Below are positions 20,682-57,470 of a stretch of DNA of 64,000 nucleotides, in pieces; position 1 is the first letter of the stretch; each line of letters begins with the position of its first letter. The notes under the pieces are model-generated. The model saw only the letters and a list, made by a program, of their open reading frames with translations, had not been told where the DNA came from and made no database searches. Position numbers and translations under genes: made by a program. Source of the stretch: Eledone cirrhosa (lineage: Eukaryota); contig OZ024742.1 of assembly GCA_964016885.1 (NCBI GenBank), forward strand, positions 109,864,001-109,928,000. The letters run 5' to 3'.

Positions 20682-21045
20682 TCATCCCTTGAATCGTAAG
20701 AATGTTTTGCAAATTTTGAAGGTGCCAGCTATCGTAGCCATTTGTAGACTATGAATTAGGGAGCTGCGCTCTTTGTCCGCAAATCCAAGTTCAGTTATAC
20801 ATTGGTCCAAGCGGGTTGGTATATAACCCGTAGCTCCAATAATGATGGGTATGAAGCTAAAGGTGTATCTTGGATACTGGATTTGTAAACTCCTCATCAA
20901 TGATCCGTATATGTCCTCCTTCTCCTGTATCTTTTTGACAACGTTTACAATAAGTGGGCAGCTGATCTCCACAACAGAACACGTTTTCAATGTGTGGTCC
21001 CAAACAACAATATCAGGCCGGTTGTGCTTTAATTTGGTGGCAGTT
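20682..21045 (-). pseudogene. C-terminal restriction-like endonuclease (RLE) fragment of a non-LTR retrotransposon (R4/NeSL-like), 5'-truncated
   Basis: HNRPDIVVWD...VVEISCP...K..IY..L...IPIIIGATG (PD-(D/E)XK-type RLE signature); short 3'UTR ends in (TACA)/(TA)n at ~20617. Confidence 0.82.
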
Positions 21046-21815
21046 TTTCCGTTTATCGTTTTCGGTGCACCCGGCCGATTAACCCACTCGAGATGCAAAT
21101 TGGGCTACTCAGCCGTTAATATGCATAAGGTAAATATATACGTTCAACAATCTGGCAGGAAGGTATACGTTGCTGACGATAGCTAATAAGCTTGAAACTA
21201 GTACAGCGTTCCTTTGTCAGTATTGAACAAACGAGCAACGATGGTTGCTGGACACTACGGCTTAATACGGGATGTTTGTTTACAAACACACCGAGAATTA
21301 TAATAACTGTTCGGTGAATCCATACGTACATATATATATGTGTGCATGTATGTATATATATATATATATATATACATACTACTGTACGTCTGTATACATA
21401 TATGTATGTACGTGTACATACTTATATTTAAGTAACAGCCGTACTAAGAGTGGGAAATGAAATTTCGTTTCATTTTTTCCGTTTATCGTTTTCGGTGCAC
21501 CCGGCCGATTAACCCACTCGATATGCAAATTGGGCTACTCAGTCGTTAATATGCATAAGGTAAATATATACGTTCAACAATCTGGCAGGAAGGTATACGT
21601 TGCTGACGATAGCTAATAAGCTTGAAACTAGTACAGCGTTCCTTTGTCAGTATTGAACAAACGAGCAACGATGGTTGCTGGACACTACGGCTTAATACGG
21701 GATGTTTGTTTACAAACACACCGAGAATTATAATAACTGTTCGGTGAATCCATATGTACATATATATATGTGTGCATGTATGTATATATATATATACATA
21801 CTACTGTACGTCTGT

Positions 21816-21820
<5 letters not shown>
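21044..21820 (+). repeat. 430-bp tandem repeat (~1.8 units), one HHR and one octamer per unit
   Basis: Period 430 (21093/21523). Confidence 0.93.
21167..21209 (+). ncRNA. Minimal type I HHR (copy 21597-21639)
   Basis: ACGTTG-CTGACGA-tAGCT aata AGCTt-GAAA-CTAG-TA-CAGCGT. Confidence 0.85.
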
Positions 21821-21886
<66 letters not shown>

Positions 21887-21887
<1 letters not shown>

Positions 21888-22520
21888 GATATTAACAAAT
21901 GGAAACTATATTTATAAAACCATATTTATTTCATTATACATATTTCAATATTTCAAGGACACCAAGTTAAATTATGGTGTGCTTTCATCAGATAAAATAT
22001 AATATAGATCAGTTTTATAAATAAATATTGACATACCCTTAAAAAATGCAACCATTACTGTTGGAAGCTCCCGGATAGCTTCCAACAGTAATGGTTGCAT
22101 TTTTTAAGGGTATGTCAATATTTATTTATAAAACTGATCTATATTATATTTTATCTGATGAAAGCACACCATAATTTAACTTGGTGTCCTTGAAATATGT
22201 ATAATGAAATAAATATGGTTTTATAAATATAGTTTCCATTTGTTAATATCGTATTTTTACTCCAAATATTTGTTGAGTGCTTTATATCAGTTATAAAAAT
22301 ATTTGCTTGTTGTATCCCAACAATTTAAATAGAACTTTTACATATATATATATATATACAATATTAAATAAATGGAAAACTATATTTATAAAACCATATT
22401 TATTTCATTATATATATTTCGGGGATATCATATTAACAATATGCTATGCCTTCATCAGACAAAATACAATATAAACAGTTTTATAGATAAATATATTCGA
22501 CATACCGTAATAAACATCAA
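21887..22520. mobile_element. Fold-back insert (21887-22252, centre ~22072) plus a diverged third copy (22358-22520); HHR-bearing
   Basis: ~180-bp inverted arms; (TA)n flank. Confidence 0.85.
22148..22210 (+). ncRNA. Type I HHR (diverged relative at 22402-22465 on -)
   Basis: ATTTTAT-CTGATGA-AAG..CACC/GGTG..CTT-GAAA-TATGTA-TA-ATGAAAT. Confidence 0.78.
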
Positions 22521-25088: not shown

Positions 25089-29547
<4,459 letters not shown>

Positions 29548-31143: not shown

Positions 31144-31325
31144 TAGAAAAGGCTTCTACAGGACTGTTTCATTCGGGAGAAATCATCAGGGAGCCCTGAT
31201 GATTTCTGCCGAATGAAACAGTTCTAGTCCTGTAGAAGCCTTTTCTATATTAAATATTTATACTCTGCTTTGTATTGAGTACCTTACTTACTGTGGTTAC
31301 CCCCGATTGACCCCGGGATAAACTT
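31144..31325. mobile_element. Small fold-back insert with HHR core (31196-31236); helix I not resolvable
   Basis: Palindrome centred ~31192; CTGATGA-TTTC tgcc GAAT-GAAA-CAG..CTG-TA. Confidence 0.6.
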
Positions 31326-32405: not shown

Positions 32406-35400
32406 ATGGCTAACACACATTCAAAATCCTCTACTGAATCCCTCAAATCGGAGACACTACTACAGGAAATATCAGAAAAACTCACCATAATAATAGATAA
32501 ATATGATTCCCTTACGAATGCCGTACAAGAAATGGAACAACAAACACGCAGCTATAGGGAAAAACTTGATTCACTAATTACAGACCGACAAAAACAAGAA
32601 CAAACCTTTTCCCCTGAAATAGCTACACATGAACAGAACTCCATCACCAATAATGCATTCAAAGAATGGAATGAACTGAATCTAGAAAAAGAAGCCTACA
32701 GAAAAAGAAACCAAATGAAAAACATTTGGAACCAACTATTAAATCAAAGAAAACAGGCATACTGGAAAGCCTTGAGGAGTAAAAACCTAGCAGACACATA
32801 CGAAATATGGCGTAGCAAGGAACCAGTTATCCTCCCGAGAAAATTCCGAATTAAAGAAATACCATCGGAATCAAAGGAAAAAACTGCAACAAGACTAAAT
32901 CTAGCACTCCAAACACTTGAGACCGAAATCACCCTACTCCGCCTAAGAGTGCCAAAATTCAAAGAGAAATTTGAAAAATGCGACACCACCATCAAAGAGG
33001 AAATAAACAAAAGAAGCAGCGGCAATGTACGTGAAAAACTCCTTAACCTATGGCAGACAGATACAACTAGAGAGGAGTTAAAATCAAAGAAAATCTCGGA
33101 ATCAAGAACTCAATGGCTTCAAGAATATGAAGATAACTATGGGAAAGACCAAATAAAACCCAGAAAACAAACCCATAGGAAACCCCAGAACTCAGGAAAA
33201 TACAACAACACAAGAAATGAAGCACCCACACACAATAAACCAACAACAACCAGATATCGGGTAACCCCAAACACACAACTACATACAGACCCAATACTCA
33301 ACACCAGAACCAGATACAACCACTGCCATGACACCAAGAACAATTACCGGAGACAAAATCAAAGACACATGAATACTGAACGAAACAACAGAAGAACCAG
33401 ACCCCCATACAGCAACGACCACGCAAGAGTCTATCGCCCAACCAGTGACCGGCATGAAGTTCCGACGGGCCAAAGGTTTCACCACAACAGAAACACCCCT
33501 ATCCCAAATGGCACCCATTTTTTAGGACTAGGGGCCTCGCACCAAATGAAAGAAAAAAAGAAAAAAAGCACCACCTTTCAAGTGGCACCTGACGAGAAAG
33601 AACCAATCGAACCAAAAATAATCAATATATCAGCCAAGAAATTAACACAACCAGAAATACAACTGTTAGAAAATGGACTGAAGTTCACTCCCACTCCGAA
33701 AGCAGATACAGCCGATGTTATAAAAGACACAGAAGAATACTGTCGAAAATTACGCTTAGGAGAATTCTTCCAGGGTGTACAATACGAGGAAGAATCACTG
33801 GTGAAAAACAAAAAGAACTTCACACCCCCGCTAAATAGAGATAAATACCTGGAGGAGTACATAACCTGCCTTCGCCGATCAGCACGTACAAATACGGCCG
33901 AGACGAAACACAAACGCAACATCCCTACAGACCAACTACTAGCATTGAACAAGCTACAAAGGGATTCCTCAATAATAATAAAAGAAGCGGACAAAGGTGG
34001 AGCAATCGTCATCATGGACATAAACCACTACAAAGATATGGTTCTAGCACACTTGAATGACGAAAACTTCTACAGGAAAATCACTAAAAACGAAGAAAGG
34101 AAATCGAGGAACCAAATAGGCAAACTAACAACAAAGTACCAAAACAACCTAACACCAAAAGAAGTAGATTACCTAACCAACTTCGAAATGAAAACCAGCA
34201 ATTTCTATGGATTACCAAAAATTCACAAATCCATAGAAATCCAAAACAACATAAAAGGGAAAAATACATCATACATCGAAGCACCAAAACCGACAGACTT
34301 AAAATTACGCCCCATTATTGCTGGCCCAGCCTCAAGCACACAACGTCTAAGCAACCTATTAGACATCATACTCAAACCCCTATGTAAAAAAGTTCCAAGC
34401 TACATCAGAGATGATATGGAATTCCTTAACTATATCCCCCAAAAAGTACACCAGGATACAATCCTAGTCAGTTTTGATGTAATAAGCCTGTACACTAACA
34501 TCCCACACGACCTAGGGATTGAAGCTGTGGACTTCTGGATTACAAAACACTCAAGTCACATTTCAGAAAGATTCCCCAAAGAATTCATCTTGGAAGGACT
34601 TAAATTAGTATTGGAAAACAACCACTTCCTCTTTGACAACGAACTTTATCTACAAATAAAAGGAACAGCCATGGGTACCAAAGTGGCCCCTACATATGCA
34701 ACGCTCGTTATGGGTCACTTAGAGGCAAAATTATATTCCCAACTACAGATAACATTCAGTCACGACTTCGCCTTCTACATTAATAAAAACTGGAAACGTT
34801 ACCTAGATGACTGCTTCATCTTCTGGAACAGAAGCCAAACAGACCTACAAAAATTTTATTCGATCTTAAACAGGCTTCATGAAGCTATACAATTCACTAT
34901 GGAATGTAACGAAAAGGAACTGCCCTTTCTAGATATCCTCATCATTAAAGAAGGGGGAAATATCATAACGGACCTATTTTGCAAACCCACTGACACACAC
35001 CAATACTTAAATTTCCGGTCAGCACACCCCTCGCATACGAAAAGGAACATTCCCTTCAACATGGCAAGGCGCATCTGCACTATAGCAACACACCCCGTAC
35101 TACAAGAAAAAAGATTATGTATCATGAAAAACTTCCTTAAAAAACAAGAATACCCGATGAAACTCATCAACGCAGCCATCTCCAAGGCTAAGAACATCCC
35201 AATAACAACACTGAGAAAACCAAACCCACAACATAAAAAAGAAAACCCTGCTATCTCTTTTGTCATCACTCACAACCCAGGGAACGTCAACATTGTAAAC
35301 ACTGTTAAGCAGTATCTCCCGATTCTACAGCAATCTACCAAAATGAATGCGCTCTTAAAAAACACACAGATAATTTATAGCAGACGCCAAGCACCCAACC

Positions 35401-35849
35401 TTAAAAAACTAATTACCAAGGCAAAATTTACGACCAACATGGAATCAATGCAAGTGACGAAATGCGGGGACCCTAGATGTGGAACCTGTGAACTCATCGA
35501 AGAGGGCAAACAGTTGTCCTTCAAAAACCATGATAATTTCAAGGTCAATGCAAACATGAACTGCAAAACGAAAAACCTAATATATTGCGCAACATGTCCA
35601 CAGTGTAAAGAGTATTACATTGGGGAAACCGGAACGGGACTACATGATAGAGTCCGGGTACATAAACAACACATTAAAGACCCCACAGTCAGAAATACCA
35701 CATGTAGCGCACACTTTGCATCATGCGGGAAGGGAAAATTCACAATCTTCCCTTTCTTCAAGATATGGTCGGATAACGAACATTTCCGCAGATATAAAGA
35801 AGAATTCTTCATTGAAAAATTTAAACCACTACTGAACACGAAAAATTGA
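32406..35849 (+). CDS. PLE polyprotein, 1147 aa: N-terminal coiled-coil-like region + RT + Cys linker + GIY-YIG endonuclease (Neptune-like)
   Basis: Uninterrupted ORF from ATG 32406; [87 protein letters not shown]. Confidence 0.95.
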
Positions 35850-36297: not shown

Positions 36298-37008
36298 TGT
36301 GTATGTGTGTGTGTGTATGCATGTATGTGTGAACGGATGTATATATACGGACATATGTATGTGTGTGTGTGTGTGTGTATGTGTGTGTATGTGTGTGTGT
36401 ATGTGTATATATGTATATTTAGTTATGTATCTTTATGTGTGTATATATATGTATATGTATGTATATATATATACCCATGTGGAGGTATGAGTACATATTC
36501 GTGTGTGTACGTATGTGTATATGAGTTTTTATGTGTCTTTATATGTTTTTATGTATGTATGTAGATGTATATGTACATGGGTGTGTGATTGATGGTGTGT
36601 GCCTATATATTCCTACATATGCCCGTGTGTGTATGTACGTATATACGCACATATGTGTGTGTTGAACAAAGGACTAATTTTGGGATGGACGTAGAAAAAT
36701 TCTTCAGAAAAAAATAATTGTTTACAAGCTTGGCAGGTGCGGTTTGCCTATGACCATTTTCTAATACAAAGGAATACTAAAAGCTTTTTCCCCTGAATAA
36801 AGGAATTTTTTCGAGAATGACCGGGGCAGGCCGCGCTTGCTACATTTCTCCCCACCCAACCCTACTCACTGTCTCAACTCATTACTGCTATTAACATTTT
36901 TTCAACACACCTACACCCATACACTTATTAAAGGGGGAGAAAAAAAACCCACCGCACCACAGACATGTTAAATCCCTATATATAGAACAACACACCACAT
37001 ACACATCA

Positions 37009-37094
37009 GTTTGACAAGCGCACCTCAGCGTGAAAGGTCTTTCTAAAAACGAAACAATACCTCCTACGTTAACCAAGAACTCCTAAGACCTAAC
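37009..37094 (+). ncRNA. Candidate U3-A8 HHR in the PLE 3' region (weak helix I)
   Basis: TTGACAA-GCGC acctca GCGT-GAAA-GGTCTT...AAGACC-TA; only 2 bp of helix I are evident. Confidence 0.55.
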
Positions 37095-37272
37095 CAACAA
37101 CCAACGACTCAATTTATTAAAAAAAATTTTTTTTTTTTTTTCTAATCCGGAAAAAAATTATTTTTGGATTTTGTGAAGAAAATAAATTTGTTGAAAGCAC
37201 AAGTGAAGCCATTTTTTCTTCCCCCCTGTCTTAATATACCTAACTGTACCAAGGATTACACACATTTTCCAA

Positions 37273-37501: not shown

Positions 37502-38245
<744 letters not shown>

Positions 38246-41395: not shown

Positions 41396-42336
41396 TTAAG
41401 TGGGTGTCAGTGACTTGACGACCATGCGAGTACCGTTGCACTGCTTTGGTGGACGCAAGTTCCTTATTAGCATAATGGGACAGCCAACCCTAAGCTTAAT
41501 AATGTGAGGTGGGAGCCCTGGGGGCTCAAGGAGATTTAATAACTCAACCAGATAATTAACGATATCGTCGGGGTCTGATTTGAAGATGTGCTCTTTACCG
41601 GGAATCTTCTCAATCAGCTGCTCGTTAATAAAATTAACCATGGTATTTTTCGGAGCAAGGATGGCTCTTTCACTGAGCCAATCGAGGTTTTTAAAGTTAG
41701 ATGAGACATTAGGAAAAACTGCTTCCCAAAGGTCAGAAGGGCTGCTCACAATGTTGCACAGGGTGTCGATTGCTATGCCGCCCTTGTCATCTGCAGGGAT
41801 CTTGCTCTCACCAAGTGCTAAAATGTTCTGTGCTGCAGACATGTTGTCACCATGCAAATGAGCACGCATATTTGTGCTCAGGTACAAACTATTCACCTGG
41901 AGCCACAACATGGACGACTTAAGACAGGCATGCACTTCATCAGCTCTTGTCCATTTGGGGATGACAGGCAGCGTTTTCGGAAAATCCCCTGATAGCAGAA
42001 GGGTTACGCCACCCATAGGAGCCGTAGAATCCCTAATGTCTTTCCGGGCCTTGTCCAATGCCTCAAGGGCACCCTTGTGTTCCATTGTGCACTCATCCCA
42101 AACAATGAGGCAACATATTTTGAGAACCATAGCTTTGTGTGAACTCTTGCTGATATTGCATGTTGGTGTCTCAGTTTTTACTAAATCCAAAGGGAGTTTA
42201 AAGGTTGAATGTGCTGTGCTGCCTCCCGGCAGCAAAGTAGCAGCGATCCCGGACGATGCAACGGACAACGCAACTTTTTTCTCTTGACGAATCTTAGCGA
42301 GAATCAAATTCGTTACAAAAGTTTTTCCGGTACCCC
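41396..42336 (-). pseudogene. Helitron Pif1-family (SF1B) helicase fragment
   Basis: GGTGKTF Walker A, ASSGIAATLLPGG.TAHS.FK, IVWDE, GDF..LPV, RAILAP.N, LIRNL...CNGTR. Confidence 0.93.
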
Positions 42337-42509
42337 CATGATCGTTTTTTATTGGGGGATCAGGGTTATTTTTTTTTTTACCTTGAGGTATAACCAGTCA
42401 GTAGTTCCTTCAAAGGCTCTGGCGGTTCCATAAGAGGGGGTAAGGTGACCTTACCGTTTAAGCAGCACATTGCAGGTGGCTCCCCAGCCCACTTTGTAGC
42501 ATTGCAGAA

Positions 42510-43106
42510 TTAGCAATTGAAGCGCATCTCGCCTATATTTATGTCAGAGCACATCGAGTAATTAACGTTTTGCTCATACTTGAAAGCCCGTAGTTGCCAG
42601 TAAGGGCTGTTGGGGCTCGTCACACCGCGTGCAGCTTCTCGCCGTCGACTGTTACGCTTGAACGTAGAACATTGGTCGTGTGGTTGGTGAGAAGGTCTTG
42701 CAGCAATAGCAGAAGCAACATTTGCAATGCTAATCGACCGCCCGTCTGCATCTTCAGAAGCCATGGAAGTAGTCATAGCCGCAGCGTTCGTAGGAAGGCG
42801 AGCCGTCCGTTGTTTTAAACGTTCCAAAGACCTGGAAGCAGCATTAGTCGCATCGTTTCTAGCCAGGCGCTTCGACCTTTGTTCACGGCTCGCTGAAGCC
42901 CTGGAAGAAGCCTGGTATGATGCCATTTTGGCTAGGCGTGCGGTGCGCTGTTGGAAACTTTCAGCGGCTCGACATTCTGCTGAACATAAGGCTGTCTGTG
43001 AAAGTCTTGAAGCATTTTCCTCAGAGGACTCGTTTGCTATAGTAGCCTTTTGCGCCACTGCTGACGCGGTATGTCGACTGAGGCGACTTCTCTTTTTAGG
43101 TGGCAT
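42510..43106 (-). pseudogene. Helitron RepHel N-terminal Arg/Ala-rich repeat region, ending at the start of the Zn finger
   Basis: MPPKKRSRL start, RAAES..QR..RL repeats, AF.Y......IGEM..C. Confidence 0.75.
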
Positions 43107-43573
43107 TTTATGTCCAAAAGAAAGGGTGAAAGTTACTTCTACAGAAAAATTGACTTTGAAAGTCTACTGTCTGTTTATGAATATTGTTATTGTTGTTGTG
43201 ATACAAATGTTAGTAAGTAAATGGGTATCGAAAAATAAAGGGTGAAAGTTACTTCAACATAAAAATTGACTTTGAAAGTATAAGGCTGATAATTGAATGT
43301 AAAAAGATTGATAAGAAAGGCCTCCAAAATTTTTTTACAGGTATTTGTATGTATGTGTGTATTTTTATGTCGAAAAGAAAGGGTTAAAGTTACTTCTACA
43401 GAAAAATTTAGTTTGAAAGTGTAAGGCCGATGTGTGTGTAAATTAAGTGACAGGTATTTGTATGTATGTGTGTATATGTATGTATGTATGTGTGTATGAA
43501 AGTGTAAGGCCGATGTGTGTGTAAATTAAGTGACAGGTATTTGTATGTATGTGTGTATATGTATGTATGTGTG

Positions 43574-46708: not shown

Positions 46709-49700
46709 CTAGCAGAGGTACCCGGCGTTGCCCGGTATAACTCTCAATGGAGTAGTCGTTCAAATCAACCGAAAGACTTCCGTTAAACACGACTATAGAA
46801 GTAACAATTTATAGGCGTTGGCCCTGAAGAGGGCATTTGAACGTTCACTTTGAAATATCTCTGCGGTGGTGCTGCCAGCAAAGACGAATCCGATGGTAAC
46901 AATTTAAAGTTGGTGGCCCTAAAGAGAGCCTTGGATCGTTCAATCTTAAAAATCTCAGCGGCAGTGCAGCCAGCAAAGACGACTTCGATTAGAGGTGGTG
47001 GCCTTCACACCACTTTGGTGTGTCGTATTTGCTTTGCTTGTTATTTGAGATTGTAACCTAGAAAAGCATGTAACAGTCGGTGGCCACAAAAACGGCCTTG
47101 GTAAGATCCCGCTGGAATGTCAAAAAAATGTGTAAATAAGATGTAGGGAAAAGTAGATTAATTAGGTTAAAACTACGGAACATCGATAGCAAAGCGTAAT
47201 AGCAACATATAAATGTGGAAAACGGAGACATTGAACATTTATAACGTATAGCAAAAGTAACCTCAGAGGCGTACGTGGTATTGTCAAAAGGACAAAAATA
47301 GCACACGGATACAGCAAATGTAAGCACTTATAAAACAAAACAAAACAAAACAAAAAAAAAAAACCAGCGATTACTTGTTGGCGGATGGGGTGCCTACAAA
47401 ACTTCCTTATAGACTATATTTTGGGTTTTCTCGCGAGTTGCAAAAGCAAATAAGTTATGCCGGCTCCCCACTCGAGAGCAGCCAACATATAGTTGACCAA
47501 GGGAGAAGCACGGTTCTTCTAAATTAAGCCCTCCGACCGTCAGCGTCTGACCCTGTGATTTGTTAATTGACATGGCGAAACTGAGCGGAAGAGGGAATTG
47601 CAGCCTTCTGAATGTGAAAGGAATGTCTTTACCGGATGGAATGAGAGGTATCCTTGGTATGAAGACAGTATCCCCCTTACCACATCCTGTAAGTATTGTT
47701 GCCTCAATAACATGAGGCACCGCCTTTTGGACGACCAGACGCGTGCCGGGGTTCCAAATTCCTGAGGAGCATGACAGGAGCACCTTTCTTAAGTCGCAGT
47801 AAGTGTAGTGGCAATCTAGGAGAGTCTAGGGAGTTAAGAAATTGTGTGGGGTAATTAACAACTTCGTCCGGATCAAACATAGAGTCAAGGGACTTGTAGA
47901 CGTGCAGGTTCACTATCGTGAATTGCAAGTCCTAGAAATGTCACGTAATGATGATCGCCGCTGTTCACTTTGCAGAAGTCGGCCACGTCGTTGCTCTATG
48001 TATTTCATACAGCAGTAGTGGCAGCGGCGGCACTGCTTCGTCGAACGGCGCGTCGTCCTTCATCCTCTCGCGCGTGAGCAGCGGCTGTTGCAGTGGCGTC
48101 CCTGCTTCGTCGAACGGCACGTCGTCCTTCATCCTCTCGCGCGTGAGCAGCGGCTGTTGCAGTGGCGTCCCTGCTTCGTCGAACGGCGCGTCGTCCTTCA
48201 TCCTCTCGCGCGTGAGCAGCGGCTGTTGCAGTGGCGTCCCTGCTTCGTCGAACGGCACGTCGTCCTTCATCCTCTCGAACGCGAGCAGCAGCAGTCGCGG
48301 CAGAATCTGTGTTCCATCGAAGTTCACGCCGACTGTCATCCTCCTTCGCTCTTGCAGCTGCCATCTGCACAGCATTCTGTGAGAGCCTGATCGCAGTCGC
48401 ATTTACATCTTCGGTGAGACGCCTTCGCTTATACCTACTTGCATCATTAGATAATCTACCAATTAAAGTTCTTTTCTTGGGTGGAATTGTTTTTAGAAAA
48501 TTAACGAGGGAGAACGATAAATAGTGGACAAAAAAAAATGAGAAAGTGGGTATGTTTTGCAAGATTTTGTGTACCAGTCAAATTTCAGGTTTTAAGTTAG
48601 GGGTAACGCAGCGTACGGACTACCTGTGATAAAGGAAATTAAATAGTGTGGCTACAGTGGTAGGTATATACGTGTCAATATGTTTGTTCAGTTCAAATAT
48701 AGCAATAAGTAAGTACTAACCATTGAAAGGATACAGGCAAAAATGGCCGAAAAATCACAGCATGATAAACTGGAACCTTATGACCATAAACACATTAACT
48801 AAACCTCCTTTAAGGTGACAAATGTTGAAGAAGCATGCGTTTCAGAAACATTGGGTAGCTTATGCGAGTACGCATGTAAAAAAAACCTACCACTTGTCAA
48901 AAGCCAAAAAAGAAGTGTGATCCTAGGTCGGACTTGACCGATATAAATAGGAGTGAGAGGTCCTCTTGCTGAATTGAAATGAAAGTAAGTGTGCCTCATT
49001 GTATCTTCATCTGTAGTACATGAATAACAACTAAGTCGAAATTCGTTTTATTGGACTACCAATTATCGAAGCTATAACGCTTTGCTGCATTACACTAGTC
49101 AAATTCAATAAATACTCGCCGGGGCTTACTGCCCCTAGGGGTCCCCTTGCTTGTTCCGGTTATAGACAGTGTCTTCAACATCATCTTTAGGCAATGGGTA
49201 ACCAATGTGTCCGGTAAAGTTAAAATTGAACGTAAACTTCAAAAGTTATCAGTACTAATACAGTGTTAATGTGAACTTCAATAGAAAAGTCGAAGGGGCT
49301 TATATCCCCCCCCCCCCCCCCCCCCCGAGGTCCCCTTGATAAATTCAAGTAAAAGTTCAGGTATTCACCTTGCTTTATAAACTATGGGTTCCAATACGTC
49401 TCGCTTCGTGAAAACCAAACACCAACTCAGGCAGTTATGACGTTTTGTTGCATTGATGATATCAACTTCAACATTCATCAATTCGGTTTACTGCCCCACA
49501 AGGGGCCCCCCATCTGAATTTCTGCGCAAGTGCATGCCTGAAAATTTATTTGTAGGCCATAAGCAAACAAAAGATTAATTTTGGTGAAGATGGGAGGCAA
49601 ACTGCAGGAATTTTGGGGCCTTTATGCAGTAGTACTGCTGACTCCAAGCGAGAGGCTTAAGGGGGTTACCTGCCCCTGGGGGACCCCACAATCGACCCAC

Positions 49701-50857: not shown

Positions 50858-51267
50858 TGGAAGTTCTAAGAGAATAAGCATATTTATTTGATAAAGAAAT
50901 GACTTCTACAGTTCTAGTCTCGGCGAAGTCGAGTGGTAAGAAACTCTCAGGAGAGCTGGACATCAGATGGTCTTCGGCGAAGAAACCGTCTGCTAATATG
51001 CAAATCAGGCCGATCAGTCACTGTGTATTTTTGAAAATAGCATATATTTTCACTAGTTCTACCAGTTCGGCAGGTGAACAGTGAGCTGTTATGATGAAGG
51101 GTGATACCCAATAACATTAGTGTCTGCAGTTCTGTTCACATGCCAACACAAGAGCAAGAATGAAGGGTTAATTCTACTGACTTGGCTATAACATTGAGGC
51201 TTGTTTGCATAATTGCAAACGAATCGAATGTTATTATTAATATTCGAAAAACTCAGATTACATTTAT

Positions 51268-51309
<42 letters not shown>

Positions 51310-52532
51310 CGCGTGCGCGCGCGCGTGCGTGTATTTATGTATCTATGTGTGTGTACATGTATATATATATATTCCCAATATTCCCAACAACGTTTCAATA
51401 TTATCCATGTAGCATCTACTCTACTAATACTGTCCTCATTTGCTGAAACAGCTAACTTAATGCCTCCAGGATTTATTTCAAGCCCCAAAACACATCAATA
51501 AACATCAATAAACATCAATAAACCCCGAAAAGTTCACATTCCTAAAATTTATCTCGGCTTAGGTTTCGGAAATTTTCGTAACTCAGTTTTGAGAATAAAG
51601 TCGGCACCTGTTTTTCGAATTTTGATAACATTGCAGTAGCCTTTTCATTAACCAAGATTATGCAAATAACACTTGCACATGTTGTCACGCAATGGGATCG
51701 AACCAGGAAACTAATGATTGTGAAGCGAACTTCTTAATTTGACTATCGTTAAAATATAATCTGTAGAAGATTACATAGTTGATATAAAACCTGGGAGAGA
51801 TATCTCGCTTCGCCTTAATCTTTGTGGTGTTATGTAAGCTGTTCTCTGCTATTTTCTAAGCTTCGGTGATGGTCATACTCATTGAACGAGTGGGGGGCTG
51901 TCCTGCTTGAGTGTGTGAAGGCGCATGGCTTAGTGGTTAAGGTGTTTGGCTTACGATCGTAAGGTCATATGTTCGATTCTCGGTGGTATTGCGTCCTTGA
52001 GTAAGACACTTTATTTCACGTTGCTCTAGTCCATTAAGATGGGGAGAAAAATGAGTCGTATCTGAGATAAATGGCCAGCCTTGTCACAGAATCTATCACT
52101 CCGAATCTTCCTGAGAACTATGTACGTTACTGGAACACATCTGTGGACTGTTCAGCTGACTGAAACAACTAGAACACATTCCGACGGGGGTTCAACAGTC
52201 TGTCATCTCTTTGTGTGTATGTGTGTGTGTCCGTGTGTGTGTGCATCCATTCCATATTTAATAAATATTAATTAATCAATTTAATTTAGGGCAGCTGTAG
52301 AGCTGAGTTCAATGGTAGCGCCGGTCGTTAGGTGTGACCTGAAATTGGAGCCTCGCGAGAAAAAAACATGTATACATGTACACATAGATACTTTAAAGAG
52401 GCTGTTTGCATAATTGCGAACGAATCAAATATTATTATTAATAGTTGAAAAACTCAGATTACATTTACACACACACACATATATATGTATAGAATTCGAT
52501 ATGTATATAATGCTTCAAGTAAAATACAAATT

Positions 52533-52624: not shown

Positions 52625-52986
52625 GATTTTGAGTTTATGTTGGTTGTATACCAATACCTCAGTATGCAGGCTGGAGCACTCGACGAAGTGCGCAGGTTGG
52701 TTTGGTTACTCCGGAGTAGTGTAAAATAAAGTTAAATAAAAGTCAAATGATTAAAATTTAGCTTCGTTTATTACTGCTATATATATTTCAGTGACAGCCA
52801 TCTTTGGCTGTGACCTCTTCAGGCAGTTTGAATTAGTATGGTATAGACAAGTACATACTTGTCTATACCATACTAATTCAAACTGCCTGAAGAGGTCACA
52901 GCCAAAGATGGCTGTCACTGAAATATATATAGCAGTAATAAACGAAGCTAAATTTTAATCATTTGACTTTTATTTAACTTTATTTT

Positions 52987-52990: not shown

Positions 52991-57470
<4,480 letters not shown>

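Follow-up and report, generated by a model that had tools for sequence, protein, structure and literature searches.

In some invertebrates, animal retrozymes reportedly rank with the most abundant circular RNAs. Newt satellite 2 carries an octamer and a PSE, the promoter of the Schistosoma satellite consists of internal A and B boxes, and the ribozyme of trypanosome Pr77 is HDV-like. In Pol II snRNA-type promoters the distal-element octamer typically lies ~200-250 nt upstream. Pol II transcription of satellite 2 is driven by an snRNA promoter (Coats et al. 1994, as cited in PMC2220036). The metazoan non-LTR retrozymes (Cervera and de la Pena 2020, PMC7229834) are described as tandem units of a few hundred bp with a canonical type I hammerhead, thousands of copies, no coding capacity and a monomer predicted to be highly self-paired, and they coexist with Penelope-like elements. 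The latter have been proposed as retrozyme mobilisers (PMC7229834; bioRxiv 10.64898/2026.07.22.740005), and their hallmarks include a preference for (TA)n, tandems that are partial, a neighbouring copy in inverted orientation and a one-sided tail (PMC8557442).

The repeats analysed here resemble those retrozymes in each of these respects, and they very probably are non-LTR retrozymes, a known class, and not merely a satellite. Their units are 430-490 bp long vs ~170-400 bp for the retrozymes of PMC7229834, and their fixed 3' ends, two in number, are mapped and boxes of a candidate promoter recognized, whereas a text search of that paper found 'promoter' just for T7 and no 'octamer'. With newt satellite 2 they share a tandem hammerhead repeat whose helix III is palindromic and minimal, as well as an snRNA-like promoter within the unit, which is a candidate here; they differ in the invertebrate host, in a proximal octamer (~-72) in the arrangement of host U6/MRP genes, in the presence of a TATA-like box and in lacking a PSE match in one lineage. 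Non-autonomous Penelope-like elements (PMC8557442; bioRxiv 10.64898/2026.07.22.740005; PMC4209133) likewise target (TA)n, are truncated at the 5' side, form partial tandems with an inverted arm next to them and have a tail at a single end, but the tail is 30-40 bp there vs ~55-70 nt here, and the hammerhead is minimal there and canonical here. The Schistosoma satellite is a hammerhead repeat with its own Pol III promoter (PMC2220036), whereas the candidate promoter here is of the upstream snRNA type and lies inside the tandem unit. The trypanosome Pr77 promoter, a retroelement promoter contacted by TBP and SNAP50 (PMC8190864), belongs to another element class and host. The retrozyme class and the satellite 2 precedent are already known; the literature full texts searched (with subscription journals, Repbase and one key supplement outside their scope) yielded none on an snRNA-type promoter in an invertebrate retrozyme, on these cephalopod-like families or on a two-end rule for retrozymes.

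The window (the whole stretch of 64,000 nucleotides analysed here) contains the following features.

21044..21473, + strand: subfamily A1 unit 1, 430 bp; its 5' end adjoins a non-LTR retrotransposon fragment
21474..21830, + strand: subfamily A1 unit 2, partial; runs into (TA)n at 21821-21886
21092..21104, + strand: octamer box of A1, with ATGCAAAT at 21093-21100; matches the host U6/U6atac/MRP box
21108..21121, + strand: position of the U1/U2-like proximal element in A1; the match is weak in A1, clear in D and G
21135..21142, + strand: TATA-like box of A1, 42 nt past the octamer start and 26 nt past TCAG
21165, + strand: predicted transcription start of A1, at octamer +72 by U1/U2 geometry
21161..21213, + strand: type I hammerhead of A1, with core at 21173-21179, helix II and palindromic ACTAGT helix III
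21271..21290, + strand: conserved hairpin with TGTTTACA at its apex
21453..21484, + strand: 3' hairpin, T-run and fixed outer 3' end E2 (at the TTT/AT boundary)
37560..38135, - strand: further subfamily B insertion in (TA)n, with one ribozyme and an octamer at 37975-37982; missed by the first-pass annotation
50970..51266, + strand: subfamily G copy with an octamer at 50998 and U1/U2-like element ATCAGTCACTG; profile E 1e-16; also missed by that annotation
54000..54992, - strand: subfamily B inverted arm, ~2 units; ends at fixed end E1 in (TA)n
54988..57300, + strand: subfamily B direct arm, ~5 units of 468 bp; ends at fixed end E2 in (TA)n

The A1 insertion amounts to 1.8 copies of the 430-bp unit (21044-21830), and the octamer of its second copy, at 21523-21530, is a complete TATGCAAAT. 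Its 5' end is abutted by a non-LTR retrotransposon endonuclease-like frame fragment at 20682-21043 (-), within an ORF at 20682-21104 (-). Octamers of the direct B arm lie at 54993, 55463, 55931, 56399 and 56868. The ribozyme core of the G copy at 50970-51266 is damaged but intact in its relatives; a further G fragment occurs at 52390-52445.

The first-pass annotation had regarded the 430-bp and 468-bp units as diverged homologues, and the two do align colinearly from end to end. The motifs it named were found at the positions claimed (ATGCAAAT at 21093, 21523, 54993 and 55463, together with GAAACTAGT and TGTTTACA), and the ribozyme cores are at 21173/21603 in the 430-bp unit and 55093/55563 in the 468-bp unit; from the octamer start to the start of helix I there are 74 nt in the former and 93 nt in the latter, again as claimed. 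The parts upstream of the ribozyme reach a local score of 65.5 vs 28.5+-4.9 for dinucleotide shuffles, none of 1000 being as high. The entire downstream parts, microsatellite-like sequence included, score 154 vs 65 (0/1000 shuffles), and the first 110/150 nt 3' of the ribozyme show borderline similarity (42/1000 shuffles).

Judged from its intact core and covarying helices, the hammerhead in each unit has a canonical type I fold. It had been noted that the helices differ between units yet keep pairing, and this holds more widely: in an alignment of 10 copies representing several subfamilies, pairing is kept in 87.5% of helix cells (0/500 shuffles). Two-sided changes affect 9 of the 16 hammerhead pairs in these copies, the G row being misaligned on its 3' side. 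In the type I folds of A1 and B, helix I is extended and contains a bulge (in A1, 6 bp plus a bulge and an AGG/CCT distal helix I), and helix III is a palindromic ACTAGT. Scores against Rfam HH9 are 37.7 bits for the 468-bp unit and 20.7 bits for the 430-bp unit, both under the cut-off of 52. Cleavage is predicted after GUA in A1 (21203, and 21633 in copy 2), after GUU in A2 and B (55123, 55593 and so on) and after GUC in C and G. According to PMC4209133, palindromic helix III motifs of such short length act in dimers, and a dimer cofold gave an intermolecular helix III for B and none for A (1/2). Relatives in subfamily G mostly have an intact ribozyme with a 3-bp helix III, which together with GUC predicts cleavage as a monomer. 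The unit monomer is predicted to be highly self-paired, with a modelled circular MFE of -125 to -165 vs -84 to -99 for 30 mononucleotide shuffles (5/5 subfamilies folded). Other hammerhead-core motifs occur in the window at 21888-22460, 24142, 31189-31218, 31682 and 52786-52923; several of them lie in head-to-head palindromes next to (TA)n, and the motifs resemble the minimal hammerheads of truncated Penelope-like elements.

The units belong to a superfamily of thousands of copies and at least seven subfamilies, dispersed as short tandem dimers to multimers through the 3.0-Gb, (TA)n-rich genome that we scanned. Genome-wide there are 970 first-look candidates for A1 (40 scored) and 27 for B. 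A pattern excluding A1 and B gave 4199 matches vs 0 in the control, those among the matches listed being of a B-related lineage, C; a second pattern gave 93 matches vs 11 in the control, and the loci obtained for 70 of the 93 yielded subfamilies A2, A3 and D as well as unrelated, old ACATGT-type hammerheads. Subfamily G, recognized by profile in the window at 50970, has 1520 candidates genome-wide, mostly monomers. By their sequence the units are non-coding: no ORF of at least 120 aa lies inside them, and the listed frames merely touch units from flanks or microsatellites. A C-type tandem array of more than 30 units ends in an inversion at G000:C1:5738327-5752443. The single, highly diverged ACTAGT hammerhead at L242:700-830 is preceded by an octamer at a distance of 82 nt, has TATAAG at +42 and may represent an old eighth lineage. 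An old dispersed hammerhead-like family (GGTCTAATAAGAC...GAAACATGT) has unrelated flanks and no octamer.

The insertions carry Penelope-like marks: they sit in (TA)n, have inverted arms that are truncated at the 5' side, and bear a tail at just one of their ends. At 44 B/C loci, E1 (unit position 394-425) and E2 (10-13) account for 62 of 67 arm 3' ends. Of these 62, 56 continue into (TA)n. Inverted B/C insertions have one arm at E1 and the other at E2 in 22 of 25 cases and the same end twice in none of the 25; subfamilies A and G show the same two 3'-end clusters. Of 6 public sequencing runs, none recorded as RNA (which has no bearing on expression), 4 were compared as contigs, and one run shows (TA)n loose ends at 55828 and 55897, both of them fixed-end places. 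The 5' ends of B/C are evenly scattered over the unit (72 ends, KS P=0.31), with no pile-up at the predicted start or the predicted cleavage site. This strict two-end rule ties retrozymes mechanistically to Penelope-like integration.

An intact Penelope-like ORF of 1147 aa with RT and GIY-YIG, flanked by (TA)n, lies in the window at 32406-35846 (+); from its cysteine linker we take it to be Neptune-like. An inverted end piece accompanies it at ~36600-37270, and a broken relative lies at 26615-27994 (-). The unit profile shows no homology to the Penelope-like elements of the window, the intact ORF included. A tblastn search for an autonomous partner found RT fragments in 5 loci, and a PDB search during the same hunt gave no match. 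Frames at 41396-43163 and 47394-48577 (-) contain a 69-bp coding tandem repeat and by their motifs are presumably Helitron-like helicases.

In order to compare the octamer with its flanks, we aligned up to 12 copies from each of six subfamilies, excluding G. Sampling covered 25 of 79 B, 25 of 41 A1 and 25 of 28 C2 segments and all segments of A2, A3 and D; 15 of these 106 were dropped as truncated, as judged by upstream similarity, and 91 were kept. Majority rows of the six subfamilies are 46-91% identical outside the ribozyme. The octamer, which the first-pass annotation had singled out as conserved, proved to be part of TATGCAAAT, the longest invariant run of the whole alignment; it is thus more conserved than its flanks, and the refuting condition set at first pass for its conservation does not apply. 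For this 9-nt run, with 69 of 297 non-ribozyme columns invariant, permutation gives P=4.5e-4, a value that is optimistic because gap clustering is ignored and there are just three deep lineages. Outside the ribozyme the six subfamilies have just one other invariant run of at least 4 nt, the ATAT of the TATA-like box. Of the 91 retained copies, spanning six subfamilies, 83 have the exact octamer, as against 0 of 34 unrelated ACATGT-type hammerheads. Subfamily G, outside this alignment, also retains the octamer word, and there the stretch of octamer plus element is triplicated in 33-bp repeats, with three sites in 11 of 27 rows and two in 7 of 27. A lower octamer mismatch among copies (0.006-0.008 vs 0.017) was set aside, as the flanks include CpG and sublineage differences.

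Host small-RNA genes were examined for the same boxes. A TATGCAAATKAG-like box is found at -76 to -78 in all five promoter types formed by three U6 types, U6atac and RNase MRP; three of the five have the exact octamer, and in all five the TATA is at -30, 46-48 nt beyond the box. In host U1/U2 genes an element centred on ATCAGT occupies -56 to -58 and in most cases precedes an AT-rich box by 26-28 nt, and 7SK and RNase P have a U1/U2-like ATCAGT element at -64 and -62, respectively. The -77 box is absent from host RNase P and 7SK, from further U6/U6atac matches (L107, L114, L115, L123-L127) and, in a second set of U6/U6atac matches, from all 11 among the matches listed (of 18); we read the box-less U6/U6atac matches as putative retrocopies or disrupted copies. 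The genome has two kinds of Pol III-type promoter, one with the -77 octamer box (U6, U6atac, MRP) and one with the ATCAGT element (7SK, RNase P). A distal TTACCTCCCTT-like motif at ~-250 to -290 is common to many host U1, U2 and U6 genes, and inspection of the units by eye did not spot TTACCTCCCTT in them. This outline of the snRNA promoter architecture of the genome is useful for U6-driven tools.

The octamer of the repeats had been likened to the POU/Oct site of snRNA distal elements, but it is not in such a position: it lies ~72 nt before the predicted start, as in host U6/U6atac/MRP, and 20 distinct host U1/U2 upstream regions contain no exact octamer. A matrix of the 13-nt box scores 16-21 in 5 of 6 repeat copies, values reached by at most 1 of 300 shuffles, vs at most 7.2 in the 20 U1/U2 upstream regions. 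The spacing from octamer to TATA is 41-43 in all subfamilies of the repeats, 3-7 short of the U6 geometry (46-48), and that from TCAG to TATA is 25-27 in the repeats vs mostly 26-28 in host U1/U2. We built a matrix of the U1/U2 element from 9 host promoters (site at -56 to -58; 8 of 9 recovered leave-one-out), with which host U1/U2 score 7.5-19. At octamer +16, a position that was noticed before scoring, the median is 11.9 in G (n=20, P ~2e-4) and 7.5 in D (n=7, P ~1e-3), A scores ~0 (P ~0.03, a weak match), and the most abundant lineage, B/C, has no match (median -10.5). The comparison with host U1/U2/U6 elements proposed at first pass gives a shared U6-type box and, in D and G, a match to the U1/U2 element, a match that is weak in A and absent in B/C. 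A matrix of the U1/U2 element-to-TATA region did not separate the repeats from U6-type promoters. In B and G the first base of the TATA-like box is C. A predicted start near octamer +72 follows from the element (+56) as well as from TATA (+30), and a pyrimidine-A there in 6 of 8 representatives lends weak support. No host gene examined combines the U6-type octamer box with the U1/U2 element.

The best reading is still the one proposed at first pass, a self-transcribing cassette resembling satellite 2, with the octamer in a proximal rather than a distal-element position. On these sequence comparisons it is probable that some internal octamer-dependent promoter is present, and the repeats likely use host small-RNA machinery for their own transcription. 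That each unit carries its own internal snRNA-type promoter, probably for Pol II and starting just before the ribozyme, we put at an even chance. The octamer may alternatively be kept just because it forms one side of a hairpin in the RNA, or because a protein binds the RNA there, with host read-through supplying transcription and the likeness to a promoter being incidental. Some transcription of newt satellite 2 has indeed been ascribed to read-through (PMC2114352), and all 9 copies folded (A1, A2, A3, B, C2, D, G) have a predicted stem with the octamer as its 5' strand, at -4.0 to -14.0 kcal/mol, while five host promoters reach -1.7 to -4.7 kcal/mol with no octamer hairpin. Of 5 circular folds, 4 also pair the octamer within this stem (long-range pairing with TGTTTACA occurs in just 1 of 5), and the lack of a U1/U2-like element in B/C fits such a role. 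However, the octamer strand is invariant and its partner changes at 3 of 6 positions, once to a mismatch, whereas the ribozyme helices vary on both sides. Variation of the partner strand alone suggests an extra sequence constraint on the octamer; it does not prove DNA binding. Moreover, the invariant word is identical to a promoter box of the host and is followed by a TATA-like box whose spacing hardly varies, and D and G match a second, independent host element, and we regard a function in RNA only as unlikely.

A promoter could also be of another kind. One of U6 type (Pol III type 3) would start before the ribozyme and stop at T5-T6 near the fixed 3' ends, with occasional read-through giving templates; the 13-nt box matching host U6/U6atac/MRP, the TATA-like box and a first T5 run that in tandem units usually lies 340-460 nt past the octamer, near E1 or E2, all speak for it. 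The box-to-TATA distance, however, is 41-43 in the repeats vs 46-48 in all five host genes, and an insertion or deletion of 5 bp in the PSE-TATA spacer inactivates a U6 promoter (PMC7949045). The bodies of four lineages have 1 T4+ run vs ~7 expected from the window rate, but also just 3 A4+ runs; T runs are no rarer than A runs (Fisher P=0.61), and measured against dinucleotide shuffles the depletion of T4 does not reach significance (P 0.43-0.91). Subfamilies were assigned just roughly in this last test: part of the A2 rows probably belong to the B type, and D contributed no tandem unit. The even 5' ends imply that templates routinely contain the promoter, so that T5-T6 runs are routinely passed, which argues against Pol III termination. 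Because of the short spacing and the even 5' ends, Pol II with snRNA-type factors is favoured over U6-type Pol III, which we consider distinctly improbable. The extended octamer word presumably resembles a generic optimal POU site, so the U6 match need not mean shared machinery, and octamer-TATA promoters occur in immunoglobulin genes. Octamer and TATA might then be inherited from an autonomous Penelope-like element, whose terminal repeat would have supplied a common Pol II promoter of the mRNA type that has nothing to do with snRNA machinery; derivation of vertebrate retrozymes from Penelope terminal repeats (bioRxiv 10.64898/2026.07.22.740005) and a start site placed within Penelope-like terminal repeats (PMC8557442) favour this origin. 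Against the U1/U2-like element in D and G, and with no homology of the units to the intact Penelope-like element of the window, it appears very unlikely.

If the snRNA-type Pol II promoter is real, a POU protein would bind the octamer, and SNAPc and TBP would bind the element and the TATA-like box beyond it. Transcription would begin near octamer +72, pass the T-runs and enter the next unit, and since it runs through, the promoter of that unit would be copied into RNA. Such tandem read-through would yield cleavable multimers, as reported for newt satellite 2. Successive hammerheads, paired through ACUAGU as dimers, would release unit-length monomers to be ligated into circles. A Penelope-type RT/GIY-YIG protein may then nick (TA)n and use E1 and E2 as its two fixed starting points for copying circles or multimers, which would produce the tandem and inverted insertions. 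More tentatively, and somewhat against our expectation, an invertebrate retrozyme lineage may have built a hybrid snRNA promoter, in which the proximal octamer box of U6/MRP is combined with the element and spacing of U1/U2 and carried inside the RNA circle.

A promoter of this type would explain how such elements are expressed, and its natural variants, B/C without the proximal element and G with three, offer handles for testing it. If the hybrid reading is true, each tandem insertion would be able to express itself, and in one subfamily the promoter would have been amplified threefold in an enhancer-like manner. Thousands of POU/SNAPc sites would then be scattered over the genome and, together with satellite 2, capture of an SNAPc promoter would be a recurring solution for hammerhead circles.
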